Positions 15,422 through 63,894 of a stretch of DNA of 64,000 nucleotides are shown here, piece by piece. The notes beneath the pieces are model-generated. The model had not been told where the DNA came from. It searched no databases and saw only the letters and a list, made by a program, of their open reading frames with translations. The first letter of the stretch is position 1; each line of letters begins with the position of its first letter. The stretch is from Escherichia phage T4. The position numbers and the translations under genes were made by a program. The stretch lies in the sequence record OL964735.1; one strand, 5' to 3'.

Positions 15422-15524
15422 TCATTTATTGCAGCAAAAATGAATTATACAATTCTTCATCATATGTATTTGATAGTAATACTAACACGTTTTGCGATAA
15501 ATATTAATTTAAAGGAGGATATAT

Positions 15525-15725
15525 ATGGTACAAAAATTAATGGCACTTGTTAATGCCATAAAAGGTAATAAGAAACGTATAGCTTTTACTATTTCTGCTA
15601 TGGTAGGAATTTTACTCTGGAACTTTATTTTATCACCTGTTGCAATTGCACATGGTGTTAATATTCCAGTAGTTACTCTTGATACATTCGTAGATTTAGC
15701 ATTTGCTTTAGTTGGGTTAATTTAA
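15525..15725 (+). CDS. hypothetical small membrane protein (66 aa), the only plus-strand gene candidate in the window
   Basis: Strong SD AAAGGAGG 15511-15518, 6 nt before ATG 15525; two hydrophobic segments; sits in the 310-nt dam-61 gap; stop TAA 15723-15725 interlocks with the gene 61 stop in the palindrome TTTAAA. Confidence 0.55.
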   Translation: MVQKLMALVNAIKGNKKRIAFTISAMVGILLWNFILSPVAIAHGVNIPVVTLDTFVDLAFALVGLI

Positions 15726-16750
15726 ATCTTAGCATATTTAGATAGCCGCATTTTAGCCATTAACCCCTGGGCAATATTATTTTTCATATATTCCATAATT
15801 TGTTCAGGGGTTGCACCTTCCTTTCTAATCATATCATTAACATCTTTTGATTTCCAGGGAGATTTATCCCAAAACATAACCCTTTCTCCTGCATCAACTA
15901 ATTTAGTCATTCGTTTAATAGTGTCAGGGTGACGAGGTTCATTATCTAAGACCCACACACGTCTATCTTTAAATGGAACAACTTCTAGGTCTAATTGACC
16001 GCCCGTAATAGCTATACCATTTTCAATAAAAAGTGAATCTATAGGTCCTTCTAGAACATATACATCACCATCTTTAACTCGTTCGACTCCATAGATTTTT
16101 GTTGCCTCAGGATAAGCTTTGATGGTGATATATTTTTGAGGAGCATCTTTCTTTAATGCACGTCCTTGAAAAGACTCAGCTTTTCCATTAGCATTATAAA
16201 TTGGAATAACAAGACGAGGCTCAGAAATTTCCTTTTTGTATGTTCCCGGTGCTATGCTATTAACTAATTTAGGCCATTCGGTTGTAAACCAAAGATATTT
16301 CCATTTATCCTTTGGAATACAACGAGCTTTTACGTATTTTATAATTGGATGGTCTTCCGCCAGTTTATCTAATCTAACACATGACGGAAGAGATTTAATT
16401 ATTTTCTTCTCGGGTTGTTTAGGAAGTTCTTTAGGTTTTTCTATTGGACGACTTTTACCTTTTTCTTTTCTTATTTCAAAGATATACTCACGATATAAAT
16501 CGGGTTCAAACTCCTTTAAATATATTCCGATTGGTGCATGATAGTTACAGTTATAACAATGAATATTTCCTTCATTATTATCACCATAATACCATCCACG
16601 GGCTTTATTCTGGTCGGTTTTTGAATCTCCACAAACAGGGCATCTAAACCGTAATTTAAAAGTTGAACTATTATTTACTTGTGTGAATTTAGGTAAATGA
16701 GCTAATGCACGGTATGCAAACTCATTATCAATCCAAGGTATTGATGACAT
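15722..16750 (-). CDS. 61: DNA primase gp61, 342 aa
   Basis: Zinc-finger CPVCGDSK...C..C; length and sequence match recalled T4 gp61. Confidence 0.92.
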   Translation of the reverse strand: MSSIPWIDNEFAYRALAHLPKFTQVNNSSTFKLRFRCPVCGDSKTDQNKARGWYYGDNNEGNIHCYNCNYHAPIGIYLKEFEPDLYREYIFEIRKEKGKSRPIEKPKELPKQPEKKIIKSLPSCVRLDKLAEDHPIIKYVKARCIPKDKWKYLWFTTEWPKLVNSIAPGTYKKEISEPRLVIPIYNANGKAESFQGRALKKDAPQKYITIKAYPEATKIYGVERVKDGDVYVLEGPIDSLFIENGIAITGGQLDLEVVPFKDRRVWVLDNEPRHPDTIKRMTKLVDAGERVMFWDKSPWKSKDVNDMIRKEGATPEQIMEYMKNNIAQGLMAKMRLSKYAKI

Positions 16751-16752
16751 TT

Positions 16753-16917
16753 TTACTCTTCTTTTTCTTTAGATTCCTCTTTTTTCTTTTTAGGAATCTG
16801 TTCAGGACCTTTATTTACTACAGCGCCTGATGTTGTTCCAGTAGAGATATTTTCAGGATTACCACCTGAATCTCCAGCGACCATATCTTCTTTGATAAAT
16901 TCTTTAAATGTTTTCAT
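16753..16917 (-). CDS. hypothetical 54-aa protein (positional 61.1) with capsid-targeting-sequence-like N-terminus
   Basis: Hand translation MKTFKEFIKEDMVAGDSGGNPENISTGTTSGAVVNKGPEQIPKKKKEESKEKEE; coordinates anchored to gene 61 start and the stop of the 16919 ORF. Confidence 0.5.
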   Translation of the reverse strand: MKTFKEFIKEDMVAGDSGGNPENISTGTTSGAVVNKGPEQIPKKKKEESKEKEE

Positions 16918-16918
16918 A

Positions 16919-17545
16919 TTAACCTCTATTCATAAAAGCATTAAAAATTTGGTCATCAATAGAAACATTTACTTTAGGCTGTTTTTCAGATGGCAATTCA
17001 TATCCACATATTACAATTTTATGATCAATATCAAAATACACAGAAGCAATATGATTAATGATATTTTCAGTAAAGTCTAAATCAACATCAATATCTTTTT
17101 GACCAAAGCCCAAAGGATAAATAATGCGAGTAATTCGATTATCTTTAACAAAGATTCCACCGACATACTCTGTGCTGCGTTTAAAGTCTACACGCCGACG
17201 AAATGAAAAATATTCAGGCTCTTTATGAGCTCGGCTCATAGGACACAACGAATAACTAGAATAAGAGATGTCAAATCCTACGCCTTCAATATGAACTAAA
17301 TTGTCATGATTAAACCAATTATAATCATATGCCAAGTCCATTAGATTGTCATATGTGAAAGGCACCGGATTAACATCATTGGTCACAAGCATATAATTAG
17401 CAACTGCTATAATTTCATTATTTTTAACGAATACAAACCGTGATTGATGCGAATGGCCTGGACCTGCGTTTTCACGATTAATGATATAACACTGGGCACC
17501 TTTATATTTGTACGTGTCTTTACACTTGTGCATTTGATAAAGCAT
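16919..17545 (-). CDS. hypothetical protein (208 aa; positional 61.2)
   Basis: ORF in track; member of the 61.x small-gene cluster. Confidence 0.65.
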   Translation of the reverse strand: MLYQMHKCKDTYKYKGAQCYIINRENAGPGHSHQSRFVFVKNNEIIAVANYMLVTNDVNPVPFTYDNLMDLAYDYNWFNHDNLVHIEGVGFDISYSSYSLCPMSRAHKEPEYFSFRRRVDFKRSTEYVGGIFVKDNRITRIIYPLGFGQKDIDVDLDFTENIINHIASVYFDIDHKIVICGYELPSEKQPKVNVSIDDQIFNAFMNRG

Positions 17546-17838
17546 TATTCACCTACCACTTCAGCGATGATATTTTTGTTATTAAAGTTTTTATCGCAAT
17601 ACAGAACATAATTATACTGCATTACACCACCAGACTTAAGCTGTTTTTGCACTTCAGCTTTCATTTCAGGACGATCACGCTTAACGATATTCATAATATC
17701 TGCTTCAATTTGAGTTTCAACCTCAGTCTGATCCGCAGTCATAGACCATTCGCACAAATCTTTATCATAACCTGCCATAGCAGGCTGAGCAGCACAAGAA
17801 GCTAAAGCAAAAATTGTAGCAAAGATGAATTTTTTCAT
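17545..17838 (-). CDS. sp: Spackle periplasmic protein (97 aa)
   Basis: N-terminal signal peptide MKKFIFATIFALASCAAQPAMA; size and position match T4 sp. Confidence 0.8.
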   Translation of the reverse strand: MKKFIFATIFALASCAAQPAMAGYDKDLCEWSMTADQTEVETQIEADIMNIVKRDRPEMKAEVQKQLKSGGVMQYNYVLYCDKNFNNKNIIAEVVGE

Positions 17839-17898
17839 GATAATCTCCTCAGTAGTTTATGTTTATATAGTATCTCAATTTCCAACAAAAGTAAACAG

Positions 17899-18156
17899 TT
17901 ATTTTAAAATTTCTGCGTAATCACATGTTACAAACTGTTTCTCTAACTTGACGATTTTACGAAAGTATCTTTTGCATTGGCGAATCTGCCTCTTCGTAGG
18001 GCGAACAGCAAACTTAATAAATTCCACTCGACCAAATGGAGGGCTTTCTTCTGCTGGAATATCTAACACCAATTCCCACGTATCTGCAATAAGTGCTTTG
18101 AATTGCGTATTTTTCCTGACGTTATACGGAGTAGGTTTAAATAAAACAATATGCAT
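17899..18156 (-). CDS. hypothetical basic protein (85 aa; positional 61.4)
   Basis: Track ORF starts inside dmd; ATG at 18154-18156 (MHIVLFKP...) has SD GAGGA and sits 1 nt from the dmd stop. Confidence 0.6.
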   Translation of the reverse strand: MHIVLFKPTPYNVRKNTQFKALIADTWELVLDIPAEESPPFGRVEFIKFAVRPTKRQIRQCKRYFRKIVKLEKQFVTCDYAEILK

Positions 18157-18157
18157 A

Positions 18158-18340
18158 TTATCCTCGGCAATCCACTTCACATACTTTCTTGTCATCAATG
18201 AAAGCTTTAACTAATGCTTTATTAACTTCAGCATATTGAGTAGTAGCCCATTGAACGTCATCTTTCATCATTGTGATTTCTTTAGTAAACATGCTTTCAT
18301 TCTTAAACCACCCCATAAAAACTACCTTTACCAATTCCAT
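18158..18340 (-). CDS. dmd: Dmd (discriminator of mRNA degradation; antitoxin against host RnlA/LsoA), 60 aa
   Basis: 60-aa ORF MELVKVVFMGWFKNESMF... matching recalled T4 Dmd; directly downstream of gene 41. Confidence 0.8.
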   Translation of the reverse strand: MELVKVVFMGWFKNESMFTKEITMMKDDVQWATTQYAEVNKALVKAFIDDKKVCEVDCRG

Positions 18341-18369
18341 AACAATCTCCTCATTTAACCGACAAGACT

Positions 18370-18399
18370 ACTATACCATAGTCTTGTCAGCTTGTAAAC
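18370..18399 (-). promoter_or_regulatory. T4-type early promoter (-35 GTTTAC 18394-18399, -10 TATAGT 18370-18375)
   Basis: -35 overlaps the gene 41 stop codon; inverted repeat GACAAGACTA/TAGTCTTGTC flanks the -10. Confidence 0.7.
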
Positions 18400-19826
18400 T
18401 AAAATTTTAATTCATTCGCCAAAGCATCTAACTGAGCTCGAGTCGATTCATTTCTTTGATAGCGATTCTGCTCAGCCTGAATCTGTTGTGAACCTGCTAC
18501 TTCGTTCACTTCAGTTGGAGTAGAATCTTGTTCAATTTCTACCCATTTTTGATTTCCTTTTTGAACACCCATCAAAAACTTATTCCACTTATTCTTATCA
18601 CCATATCGTGATTTGATTTGCTTAATGAGTTGTTGTTCAGCAGCTGCTAGCTCCTCGGTTTCAATGACCGCAAGCATAAAATCGGCTGTTGCTGGAAGAC
18701 CGGCAGATTCTGCAATATCGCTCATGTTAACATCGGAAGAGTCCCAAGCTTGTTTACCAACCTGTGCTGCAGTCCAAAGAACAGTTTCGGTTTCAACAGC
18801 CAGAGCACGTAATTCCTCTGCAATAGCTTTAACAGTTGTGTAACTATTTTCTGAATAAACTCTAATGCGGCAAGATTTACAAATACCTAGATAGTCGACA
18901 ATAATGATTGTTGGAACAAAATTCTTCTTGAGCTTCAATTCGTTTAAAAGTGATCGAAATGTATTAGCGTCTGCTCCACCAGTAGGATACTGTTTAACGA
19001 TTAAACGACCAAGAGTAGATTTCTCACGCCATTTTTCCATTTTTCCTTTATACTCAGCGTAAGAAATATGCCCATCATCAATGTCATCAAGAGAAACATC
19101 AAGCATATTAGCGTCAATACGTTTAGCACAGACTTCTTCTGCCATTTCCATGGAAATGTAAAGAACATTATGTCCGAGCTGTAAATAATCTGCCGCTAAT
19201 GAACACAATCCTAATGATTTACCAACGTTAACGCCAGCCATTAAAACGTTCAGTGTTCCAGTTTCAGCTCCGCCTTTCGTAATTTTGTTCAGAATTCTGA
19301 GTTTAAATGGAACCTTACGAGCTTTATTCATATAAGATAGCCAACGTGCTTCGTAGTCATCCATCCAATCATGACCAACGTAACTATCAAATGAAATTGA
19401 TAATGCCTGGCGCATGATGTCAGGAATAGCACCAACATCCGGCATTTTCTTATTTCGTTTTTCCGGAGGAAGCTCAGCATTAGTTTGAATTTCGATTATT
19501 TTAGACGTAGCATTAAACATCGCCCTTTGCTGAACATATTTTTCTGTTTCTTTTACTAACCAGCTGTGGTCTTCCGGAGAATCAGCCAGTTTTGAAATAA
19601 GTGTTTTTACACCAGAATATTCTGTTTCAGTAAATGAACTATTTTCTAATGCAACATTTAACGCATTAATAGATGGAACGCTATGGTACTCATTAACATG
19701 AGATTTAATTAATTTGAATGTATTTTTAGCTGGACCACTTTCAAAATATTCTGAATCCATATATGGCCAAACTTTTGAAAAATAAGCTTGATCAAATATG
19801 AGATGAGAAAGAATAATTTCTACCAC
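18399..19826 (-). CDS. 41: replicative DNA helicase gp41 (DnaB-like), 475 aa
   Basis: Length and N-terminus MVEIILSHLIFDQAYF match T4 gp41; first codon reads GTG with SD AAGGAG 4 nt upstream. Confidence 0.9.
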   Translation of the reverse strand: MVEIILSHLIFDQAYFSKVWPYMDSEYFESGPAKNTFKLIKSHVNEYHSVPSINALNVALENSSFTETEYSGVKTLISKLADSPEDHSWLVKETEKYVQQRAMFNATSKIIEIQTNAELPPEKRNKKMPDVGAIPDIMRQALSISFDSYVGHDWMDDYEARWLSYMNKARKVPFKLRILNKITKGGAETGTLNVLMAGVNVGKSLGLCSLAADYLQLGHNVLYISMEMAEEVCAKRIDANMLDVSLDDIDDGHISYAEYKGKMEKWREKSTLGRLIVKQYPTGGADANTFRSLLNELKLKKNFVPTIIIVDYLGICKSCRIRVYSENSYTTVKAIAEELRALAVETETVLWTAAQVGKQAWDSSDVNMSDIAESAGLPATADFMLAVIETEELAAAEQQLIKQIKSRYGDKNKWNKFLMGVQKGNQKWVEIEQDSTPTEVNEVAGSQQIQAEQNRYQRNESTRAQLDALANELKF

Positions 19827-19835
19827 ACTTACTCC

Positions 19836-20198
19836 TTAAAAGAATTTAAATTTTTTCTTTGACCTTTTATTAAATGCATCTTGCAGTTGCATTGTAATAC
19901 ATTTTTCTACATGAGGAGCTAACTCAGCTTTTCTTTCTTGGTCAAGAACAGCAAAGTCCATTACAACCTTTCCATCAACCCAATCCAGTTTAGTTACATA
20001 CACTATATGCGTAGAACCATCTTCTAGTTTAATGACAATCTCCTGGATAACATTTTCCATAGCAGATTTAATTATCTTAAGAGACTCATTAAAAAGACGT
20101 TCTTTTCTTTCTTCTTCCCCCTCCGAAGAGGGGGATTCATCGATAATTTCTAGATCTAAATCTAAATCATCTTTATTCATTAAATTCTTCCATATCAC
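19836..20198 (-). CDS. 40: gp40 head vertex assembly protein (120 aa)
   Basis: Position between uvsX and 41 and size match T4 gene 40. Confidence 0.75.
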   Translation of the reverse strand: MIWKNLMNKDDLDLDLEIIDESPSSEGEEERKERLFNESLKIIKSAMENVIQEIVIKLEDGSTHIVYVTKLDWVDGKVVMDFAVLDQERKAELAPHVEKCITMQLQDAFNKRSKKKFKFF

Positions 20199-62517: not shown

Positions 62518-62883
62518 TTATGCATAAATCGCCTTACCGTAGTATTTGTACCAAGTAGGACGTTGTGCAATTTTTTCATCTAAACGAGCTTGTGATATAG
62601 CAATAGAAGCTTCATGGGGAATATAATCACCACGGAATTCCTGAGGAATATCACTAATATCCTGGACTGTAGTATCCTTGATATTAAAACCACGTTTTAA
62701 ACATTCAGCTATAAGCTCAATTTGACGTTTACGTAAGAACTCGAGCTTATCGTAAAAGAATGTAACATGACCTGCGCCAAGGATAAAAGTAGGACTGATT
62801 TTAAAATCACGAACACGTTTACCGTTAGCAACATGCTTACGAACTGCACCAAAAACACGCGGCAATTCACGATATTCAGCCAT
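62518..62883 (-). CDS. denV: endonuclease V (pyrimidine-dimer DNA glycosylase) DenV, 5'-truncated: 121-aa ORF equal to residues 18-138 of canonical T4 DenV
   Basis: [30 protein letters not shown]...YGKAIYA is identical to recalled T4 endo V from Met18 on; in-frame upstream codons read stop-T-D-Q-H-L; ATG overlaps the ipII stop (TAATG). Confidence 0.8.
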
Positions 62884-63197
62884 TAAGTGTTGGTCAGTTT
62901 ATCTTTAATTGCTTTAGCTGCTTCGATAGCCGCTTGCTGAAGGTCATCCATAGACATGCCGAACTTAGAAGCAAAGTTATCAATTTTCTTTTCGACGGCA
63001 TTCAAAGGCTTGGCCTGTTTACCTTCATTAGCGCCAGGAAGAGCGAGAATACGCTCTCTGTCAATATAAAGGCTTACAAGTTTCTTACGGTCTTTATCGG
63101 GCAAATCATGAAATGAATGGGCCTTTTTATTTACAGCGGCTTCTAATTTACCTGCGCCCACTCGCGCTTCGGCAATAAATTCTTGATATGTTTTCAT
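62883..63197 (-). CDS. ipII: internal protein II (IPII), 104 aa, with capsid-targeting N-terminus
   Basis: N-terminus [11 protein letters not shown] shared with IPIII; position upstream of denV. Confidence 0.85.
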
Positions 63198-63312: not shown

Positions 63313-63894
63313 TTAAGAATTACCACGGGCTGCATTAGCAACGGCGTAAGCGTACTGAATATTAGCGTCTTTAAACTTACCTTTAGAGGTATCTATTTCT
63401 GCCTTAAAGCCGCCTTTAGTCATAACATCGGCAAATTCTTTACGGAAAGCCATTGCATCAAGACCTTTCCATGATGATTTATGCTTGGCAAATTCAAGAC
63501 CTGCGAAGTTGACAGCTTTAGCCAATTTATTATCAATGACCCATTTACCGGCTTTAGGCACAAACTTCGGGCCTTTCTGTTTAGAGAACAGTTTTAAATT
63601 CCAGCGGCGAAGGTCTGCATCAGCTTTAACAAATTCTGAGTCTAAGTTACTAGCAACAACATCTTCAATATGAGCAAATTTAAGTCCGTCAACTTCAATA
63701 TTTAAATCGGTACGCCAGCGAAGTCCTTCCCAAGCGAAGGCTTTAAAGTCGGAAGCCTTTGTAGCTAAGTACCGTTCAATAGGAGCTGTTTTAGGGTCAA
63801 AGCCGTTTCCTGATCGGTAGGTCCACTCATCTTTGTTAATGCCTTTGGCCTTTACTACAGAAGCTTCGGCAATAAATTCTTGATATGTTTTCAT
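63313..63894 (-). CDS. ipIII: internal protein III (IPIII), 193 aa, with capsid-targeting N-terminus
   Basis: N-terminus [18 protein letters not shown]; length matches T4 IPIII. Confidence 0.88.
   Translation of the reverse strand: MKTYQEFIAEASVVKAKGINKDEWTYRSGNGFDPKTAPIERYLATKASDFKAFAWEGLRWRTDLNIEVDGLKFAHIEDVVASNLDSEFVKADADLRRWNLKLFSKQKGPKFVPKAGKWVIDNKLAKAVNFAGLEFAKHKSSWKGLDAMAFRKEFADVMTKGGFKAEIDTSKGKFKDANIQYAYAVANAARGNS

Follow-up and report, generated by a model that had tools for sequence, protein, structure and literature searches.

The region between genes 41 and 61 of Escherichia phage T4: a known counter-defence cluster beside a conserved gene, 61.1, that resembles part of the capsid protein gp23

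In the T4 genome, a group of small genes separates gene 41, which encodes the replicative helicase, from gene 61, which encodes the primase. This region was analysed in a stretch of 64,000 nucleotides from Escherichia phage T4 (sequence record OL964735.1, one strand, 5' to 3'), referred to here as the window. An initial annotation of the window, made from the letters without database searches, had described the interval 16919-18340 as an island of small genes that contains the Dmd antitoxin. The locus is almost certainly the T4 41-61 cluster, a variable accessory region that has taken up several early genes acting independently of one another; three of these are published counter-defence genes. 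This assignment is based on sequence identity, gene boundaries, family membership and key residues, while the functions of the genes are taken from the literature. The features of the region, in the order in which they are met along the minus strand, are as follows.

18399-19826, minus strand: gene 41, replicative helicase; upstream flank (annotation)
18370-18399, minus strand: early promoter of the dmd-tifA operon (consensus scan and direct reading)
18357-18392, minus strand: hairpin of 15 base pairs, AGCUGACAAGACUAU / GUAGUCUUGUCGGUU, with a 6-nucleotide loop (RNA folding)
18158-18340, minus strand: dmd (61.5), 60 amino acids (Pfam, PDB and T4 annotation)
17899-18156, minus strand: tifA (61.4), 85 amino acids (coordinates equal to those of annotated 61.4)
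17867-17896, minus strand: candidate second early promoter, upstream of sp, GTTTACTTTTGTTGGAAATTGAGATACTAT (read from the sequence)
17545-17838, minus strand: sp (spackle, 61.3), 97 amino acids with a signal peptide (Pfam and PDB)
16919-17545, minus strand: adfA (61.2), 208 amino acids (Pfam and alignment with RB69)
16753-16917, minus strand: 61.1, 54 amino acids, uncharacterised (open reading frame and T4 annotation)
15722-16750, minus strand: gene 61, primase; downstream flank (annotation)

Across positions 16700-18450, the window is 100% identical (1751/1751 bases) to T4T (HM137666), RB55, RB59 and several T4 records; two single-nucleotide polymorphisms set it apart from the reference NC_000866 (99.9% identity). 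One of these, at 16841, makes codon 26 of 61.1 Thr in the window and Ile in NC_000866; the other, at 17361, makes codon 62 of 61.2 Pro in the window and Leu in NC_000866. At both sites the window carries the residue that is conserved in homologs, in agreement with T4T and with resequenced T4 records. The genes annotated in NC_000866 and MT984581 coincide base for base with the open reading frames of the window (the NC_000866 annotation was mapped with window coordinate = locus L001 coordinate + 15199). Since the window is a known genome, chance is not a concern. All five small open reading frames expected between genes 61 and 41, namely 61.1, 61.2, sp, 61.4 and dmd, are therefore in place, each on the minus strand; the interval 16919-18340 contains four of them, and 61.1, although listed with the others, lies outside it at 16753-16917. 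The genes are tightly packed: the dmd stop and the 61.4 ATG are 1 base apart (TAA-T-ATG), the sp stop codon overlaps the adfA ATG (TAATG), 61.2 and 61.1 are separated by 1 nucleotide and the 61.1 stop from the gene 61 ATG by 2, the gap between 61.4 and sp measuring 60 base pairs. In the mechanical list of open reading frames 61.4 appears as a 99-amino-acid frame with a TTG start, whereas the annotated and published gene is the 85-amino-acid ATG frame. An Rfam search of 15500-20000 (E <= 1) returned no RNA family.

The first gene of the cluster, dmd, was correctly recognized in the initial annotation. Its product matches Pfam PF17587 at 1.6e-46 over positions 1-60 of 60, and PDB entry 5HY3_B ('Antitoxin Dmd') matches residues 1-60 with an E-value of 1.8e-37. 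The gene adjoins gene 41 on its downstream side and is preceded by an early promoter of its own, the arrangement that characterizes Dmd. According to PMC3014915 and PMC9391042, Dmd directly inhibits the host endoribonuclease toxins RnlA and LsoA; compared with T4 Dmd as described (61.5, an antitoxin mimic of RnlB/LsoB, with the toxin complex in PDB 5HY3), the gene, its position and its promoter are the same and no difference is seen. In an infected cell, Dmd would bind and block the RnlA/LsoA ribonucleases, a function taken from the literature.

The second gene, 61.4, has a product of 85 amino acids, is co-operonic with dmd and has been renamed tifA (PMC9391042). The suggestion that a 61.4 homolog counters ToxIN proved right, as the coordinates equal those of annotated 61.4 and the published description fits. 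The protein matches Pfam DUF7279 at 2.3e-20 and is 57% identical to RB69 TifA; in alignment with the latter it has the basic cluster R52, K55, R56 and R59 together with P53 and T54. Residues R52, K55, R56, R59, P53 and T54 are needed for ToxN binding, and mutation of P53, T54, K55, R56 or R59 abolishes binding of both RNA and ToxN (PMC10853763). T4 TifA differs from the more potent RB69 TifA in having F41 instead of H41 and a C-terminal extension of 15 amino acids. No solved structure was found for TifA. The protein neutralises the type III toxin ToxN in vivo (PMC9391042), and on the basis of the literature it would bind RNA and ToxN, holding the toxin in a ribonucleoprotein complex in which 16S rRNA is abundant. 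Two GAAAU motifs, the recognition sequence of ToxN, occur in the dmd-tifA transcript, at 17909-17913 and 18276-18280 (minus strand); in PMC9391042 the motif at the 3' end of tifA was ablated, and the other lies inside dmd.

The third counter-defence gene is adfA, the product of T4 gene 61.2 being AdfA (PMC9391042). What is said of AdfA here is drawn from PMC9391042 and PMC11257639. The suggested link of 61.2 to DarTG is upheld by a full-length match to Pfam PF23813, 'Anti-DarT factor A' (3.8e-137, residues 1-208 against profile positions 1-211), and by the statement in PMC9391042; with 68% identity between the T4 and RB69 proteins, 61.2, like 61.4, is clearly similar to a characterised counter-defence protein. 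As in RB69, T4 AdfA is a full-length PF23813 member encoded directly after sp. The two proteins differ at a position of functional weight: wild-type RB69 AdfA has Arg164, whereas T4 AdfA has His165 at the corresponding place (ENNINRIAS in RB69, ENIINHIAS in T4). A His at RB69 position 164 permits neutralisation of DarT1, and the DarT1-neutralising variants associate with DarT1 in a two-hybrid assay (PMC11257639). T4 carries the neutralising His allele, and its AdfA would bind the ADP-ribosyltransferase DarT1. No solved structure was found for AdfA.

The fourth gene, sp, encodes a protein that matches Pfam PF25676 (T4_Spackle) at 1.6e-44 and, over residues 1-97, PDB entry 6X6O at 2e-62. Since the mature chain of PDB entry 7CN6 begins at Sp residue 23, after AQPAMA, the predicted signal peptide is supported, and so is the initial description of sp as the gene for a periplasmic protein with a signal peptide. 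The papers that describe the two structures reportedly present Sp as a periplasmic inhibitor of the tail lysozyme of a superinfecting phage. Sp would accordingly be a protein exported to the periplasm that blocks this lysozyme. It is the same protein as Spackle (61.3), and it is grouped with the anti-toxin genes by location only.

With regard to transcription, the initial annotation had placed an early promoter at 18370-18399 and assigned it to the island as a whole. Its position is exact: a -35 element GTTTACA (18399-18393) is followed by a 17-nucleotide spacer and a TG-extended -10 element TATAGT (18375-18370), and the element matches 10/12 with TG, the best minus-strand match of the region in a generic consensus scan. 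Its assignment to the entire island does not hold, as it drives dmd and tifA only, in line with the early T4 promoter upstream of dmd that is described as driving dmd and 61.4 in PMC9391042. A candidate second early promoter, GTTTACTTTTGTTGGAAATTGAGATACTAT, was read from the sequence upstream of sp (17867-17896); it is nearly the same as an early-type element upstream of ipIII in the window, and a promoter downstream of tifA is mentioned in PMC9391042. From these elements we infer two transcription units, dmd-tifA and sp-adfA-61.1-61, of which the second would start near 17867-17896 and run through sp, adfA and 61.1 into gene 61, while transcription of dmd-tifA would proceed from 18370-18399. 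The genes ipII and ipIII lie in the window at 62883-63197 and 63313-63894 (minus strand), with their upstream regions extending to 63960; the two genes share the same first 30 nucleotides, and upstream of each lies an early-type promoter (GTTTAC...GATAGTAT) that closely resembles the sp element. The island has no exact copy of the late promoter TATAAATA, of which the whole window contains only 3, below chance expectation.

The dmd promoter overlaps a hairpin (18357-18392) that lies directly after the gene 41 stop, with the promoter -10 element in and around its loop. The predicted fold has an energy of -21.7 kcal/mol (z = -5.5), and 0/200 shuffled sequences were as stable. Because it is not followed by a T-run, it was not scored as an intrinsic terminator, and a scan for such terminators across 15600-18600 returned none. 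The hairpin may mark the 3' end of the gene 41 mRNA or contribute to its stability.

Several observations weigh against a straightforward view of the cluster as a set of working counter-defence genes. Plasmid-borne toxIN still restricts wild-type T4, which has to amplify tifA in order to escape (PMC9391042); native tifA overcomes chromosomal toxIN only, not the plasmid-borne system. Sp is a superinfection-exclusion factor and not an anti-toxin, and the candidate promoter upstream of sp falls below the threshold of the generic consensus scan. For adfA, loss of the gene, alone or together with adfN, leaves T4 resistant to DarTG1, and neither AdfA nor AdfN counters DarTG2 (PMC11257639). The T4 gene can be dispensed with on DarTG1 because AdfN, the product of 30.3, acts there as well (PMC11257639). 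Deletion phenotypes are published for hosts with RnlAB/LsoAB and with chromosomal ToxIN, and so far none for T4 adfA.

The absence of a deletion phenotype on DarTG1, with or without adfN, and on DarTG2 speaks for an alternative in which T4 adfA is a vestigial or mis-targeted allele that has no present role in counter-defence, so that the island would hold two working anti-toxin genes. We consider this rather unlikely. T4 AdfA still has the neutralising His where RB69 has R164, and when expressed ectopically it rescues RB69 on DarTG1 (PMC11257639). Furthermore, it is a full-length, high-scoring member of its family that is 95-100% conserved in >200 records, and the authors of PMC11257639 propose that it targets another DarT homolog.

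The distribution of the five genes among phages sets 61.1 apart. At a tblastn cut-off of E <= 1e-3, matches were found in 1398 phage records for 61.1, 903 for Sp, 800 for Dmd, 674 for TifA and 486 for AdfA. In Morganella phage MP1, Shewanella phage Thanatos-1, Aeromonas phages 31.2 and 65 and Citrobacter phage Ci1, a 61.1 homolog is the sole gene between helicase and primase. In RB69 (NC_004928, 15000-24000), the same gap holds dmd, 61.4, imm.1, imm, sp, 61.2 and 61.1 plus four further open reading frames, with imm and imm.1 presumably situated elsewhere in T4. To these four frames (ORF033c, ORF032c, ORF040c and ORF041c) no function is assigned; the RB69 gap frames are candidates for further counter-defence or exclusion cargo. 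Because it is the only gene of the gap in distant phages and also the most widespread, 61.1 is, as its distribution suggests, the ancestral conserved resident of the 41-61 gap and stands outside the accessory cargo, the counter-defence genes being later cargo that was probably added upstream of it.

The protein encoded by 61.1 has a simple layout, with a decapeptide, MKTFKEFIKE, that resembles a capsid targeting sequence, a core that resembles the N-arm of gp23, and a Lys-rich tail. Neither Pfam nor NCBIfam has a family for 61.1 or for its long-form homologs; it belongs to PHROG 1823, and PHROGs gave only families of 'unknown function'. Its homologs range from 51 to 185 amino acids, the common form having about 155-165, and in the long forms a conserved N-terminal domain of ~100 amino acids takes the place of the decapeptide. 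An AlphaFold2 model of one long-form homolog (P0064) is confidently helical in this domain, with a predicted local distance difference test score (pLDDT) of 80-88. Comparison of the modelled domain with PDB folds gave no match better than E = 3, and a search of BFVD with the model of the long form retrieved only uncharacterised viral proteins. The domain corresponds to PHROG 2086/18642 and has ~1800 metagenomic cluster representatives, all of unknown function. One distant homolog of the domain lies among genes for ribonucleotide reductase and RNase H, not among head genes; since it has no gp23-like tail, this context speaks neither for nor against packaging. All 61.1 homologs share a tail that consists of hydrophobic-x-E, (D/E/S/A)-M-V-A-G-D-S-G-G, 4 variable residues, I-A-S-G-x-T-(S/T)-G-A-x-x-x-x-G-P and a Lys/Arg-rich end.

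A search of T4 gp61.1 against all PDB sequences with phmmer gave T4 gp23 as the top match (E 0.0039), with gp61.1 residues 3-39 aligned to gp23 residues 58-94 and 17/37 positions identical. The resemblance becomes much stronger at the family level: a profile of 12 diverse 61.1 homologs matches gp23 residues 49-101 with an E-value of 1.6e-8, and hhalign, run with the 61.1 family against gp23, returns a probability of 96% and an E-value of 3.4e-9. The aligned gp23 segment comprises ~50 residues, about 53-102, and we take it to span the prohead-protease site E65|A66 and the start of mature gp23*. Outside this junction of ~50 residues, comparison of the long-form N-domain with the gp23 propeptide by hhalign revealed no similarity. 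Some GenBank and UniRef entries name 61.1 homologs 'major capsid (domain-containing) protein', which means that the resemblance has already been picked up automatically; no paper that discusses it was found.

Two points limit the resemblance. The gp23 segment is conserved only in capsid proteins of the Tevenvirinae type, the corresponding part of gp23 in marine T4-like phages being a variable Gly/Ser/Thr linker, and no co-variation of the 61.1 and gp23 motifs was detected in 7 paired IMG/VR genomes, in which, for example, GAVT in gp23 is found with GAIT in 61.1. Membership of 61.1 in the gp23 family of capsid proteins was considered and rejected: of its 54 amino acids ~50 residues are aligned, and the HK97-fold body is missing (mature gp23 has ~450 amino acids), so that by fold 61.1 is not a capsid protein. 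In the long-form model the gp23-homologous tail is predicted to be disordered. A relation to the Gol peptide of gp23, the trigger of Lit, was likewise dropped; the aligned segment ends roughly where Gol begins, Gol presumably covering gp23 residues about 93-122.

The length variation among homologs raises the alternative that T4 61.1 is a decaying, functionless remnant of a longer ancestral gene of about 155 amino acids, left behind after the accessory insertions. T4 61.1 does lack the N-domain of ~100 amino acids found in most homologs, no remnant of which was found elsewhere in the window, and RB69 has the long form divided between ORF032c, which carries the N-domain, and 61.1. Decay is nevertheless distinctly unlikely, in view of the short forms of 51-62 amino acids that have intact frames in several lineages (T4-like phages, Klebsiella phages, Aeromonas phage 31.2 and vB_Eco_SAP), and that, although divergent elsewhere, show hardly any variation in the core MVAGDSGG..IASG.TSGA..GP or in the hydrophobic-x-E before it. 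The tight translational coupling of 61.1 to gene 61 has also been retained.

A second resemblance of gp61.1 concerns its N-terminus. The internal proteins IPII and IPIII carry a capsid targeting sequence (PMC8442874), which the gp21 prohead protease cleaves; positions 4 and 7 of this sequence are critical for targeting and positions 8 and 10 for processing (PMC9026906). The decapeptide of gp61.1, which reads MKTYKEFIKE in T6 and many relatives, matches the IPII/IPIII sequence at 7-8/10 residues, including 4/4 critical positions (an aromatic residue at 4, Phe7, Ile8 and Glu10). At the DNA level, the first 30 nucleotides of 61.1 are identical to those of ipII/ipIII at 24/30 positions, and in gp23 itself the equivalent positions, ahead of the cleavage site, are occupied by F, F, L and E. 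In a six-frame search of the 64-kb window, the capsid-targeting pattern matched only ipII, ipIII and 61.1, a result that is only indicative because the pattern was designed after the sequences had been seen. Like ipII and ipIII, 61.1 has an early-type promoter upstream; as those two genes are themselves preceded by such promoters, early expression of 61.1 is no argument against packaging.

On this evidence gp61.1 may be a fourth protein tagged for capsid targeting, directed to the prohead, processed by gp21 and mimicking the N-arm of gp23, a proposal that we regard as tentative and somewhat doubtful. According to this scheme, gp61.1 would be made early and enter the prohead scaffold by means of its MKTFKEFIKE leader, whereupon the gp21 protease would cut it after Glu10, leaving a 44-residue peptide, DMVAGDSGG...GPEQIPKKKKEESKEKEE. 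The predicted cut would expose Asp11 as the N-terminal residue (peptide DMVAGDSGGNPENISTGTTSGAVVNK). The product may then travel in the capsid with the DNA, or it may act as a pseudo-substrate or N-arm competitor in head assembly. Unlike IPII and IPIII, gp61.1 has a predicted mature product of only 44 amino acids, and its packaging and cleavage are predictions from sequence. A few long-form homologs have Asp and not Glu at the junction, which counts against the proposal, and no virion proteomics for gp61.1 was found in the literature, in which just two papers, judging by title both genome descriptions, name gp61.1.

The name 'anti-TA (toxin-antitoxin) island' has already been given to the region in PMC9391042, and the central observation of the initial annotation is thus confirmed but was already known, including this label. 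The broadest use of the term, by which every gene between 41 and 61, sp and 61.1 included, would be anti-TA or anti-defence, is very unlikely: PMC9391042 suggests as much for 'other genes in this region', 3/5 genes are published anti-toxin factors in that paper and the RB69 gap holds further small open reading frames with no assigned function, but Sp has a solved role of another kind, the inhibition of lysozyme in the periplasm (PDB 6X6O/7CN6), and 61.1 behaves as a conserved backbone gene, being the only 41-61 gene in distant Straboviridae of Aeromonas, Shewanella, Morganella and Citrobacter, present in 1398 records compared with 486-903 for the other four genes, and detectably similar only to a capsid protein and to no defence-related protein. 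Sp and 61.1 are not known anti-toxin factors.

Beyond gene 61, the neighbouring gap between dam and gene 61 contains a plus-strand open reading frame of 66 amino acids (15525-15725), whose ribosome-binding site, AAAGGAGG, is strong and whose product has a hydrophobic core. The frame is missing from the annotation of the T4 records NC_000866 and MT984581. Its product is 54% identical to that of the annotated RB69ORF029w, and it is found in 692 phage records, several of which annotate a hypothetical protein. Upstream of the frame, GATAAATA (15497-15504) is a 7/8 match to the T4 late promoter.

The dmd-tifA-sp-adfA cluster of T4 adds nothing to the literature and serves as a positive control for the recognition of such islands from raw sequence. 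What the comparison of genomes points to is a variable slot upstream of 61.1 that different T4-like phages have filled with different cargo, and the same slot in other Straboviridae is therefore a good place to seek new counter-defence genes. The resemblance of 61.1 to gp23 and to the capsid targeting sequence may be one novelty of the locus. Together, the statistically solid gp23 similarity and the leader provide a concrete and cheap experiment on a T4 gene of unknown function, and, if the proposal is true, a conserved gene of the helicase-primase gap would be tied to head morphogenesis and not to replication or counter-defence.

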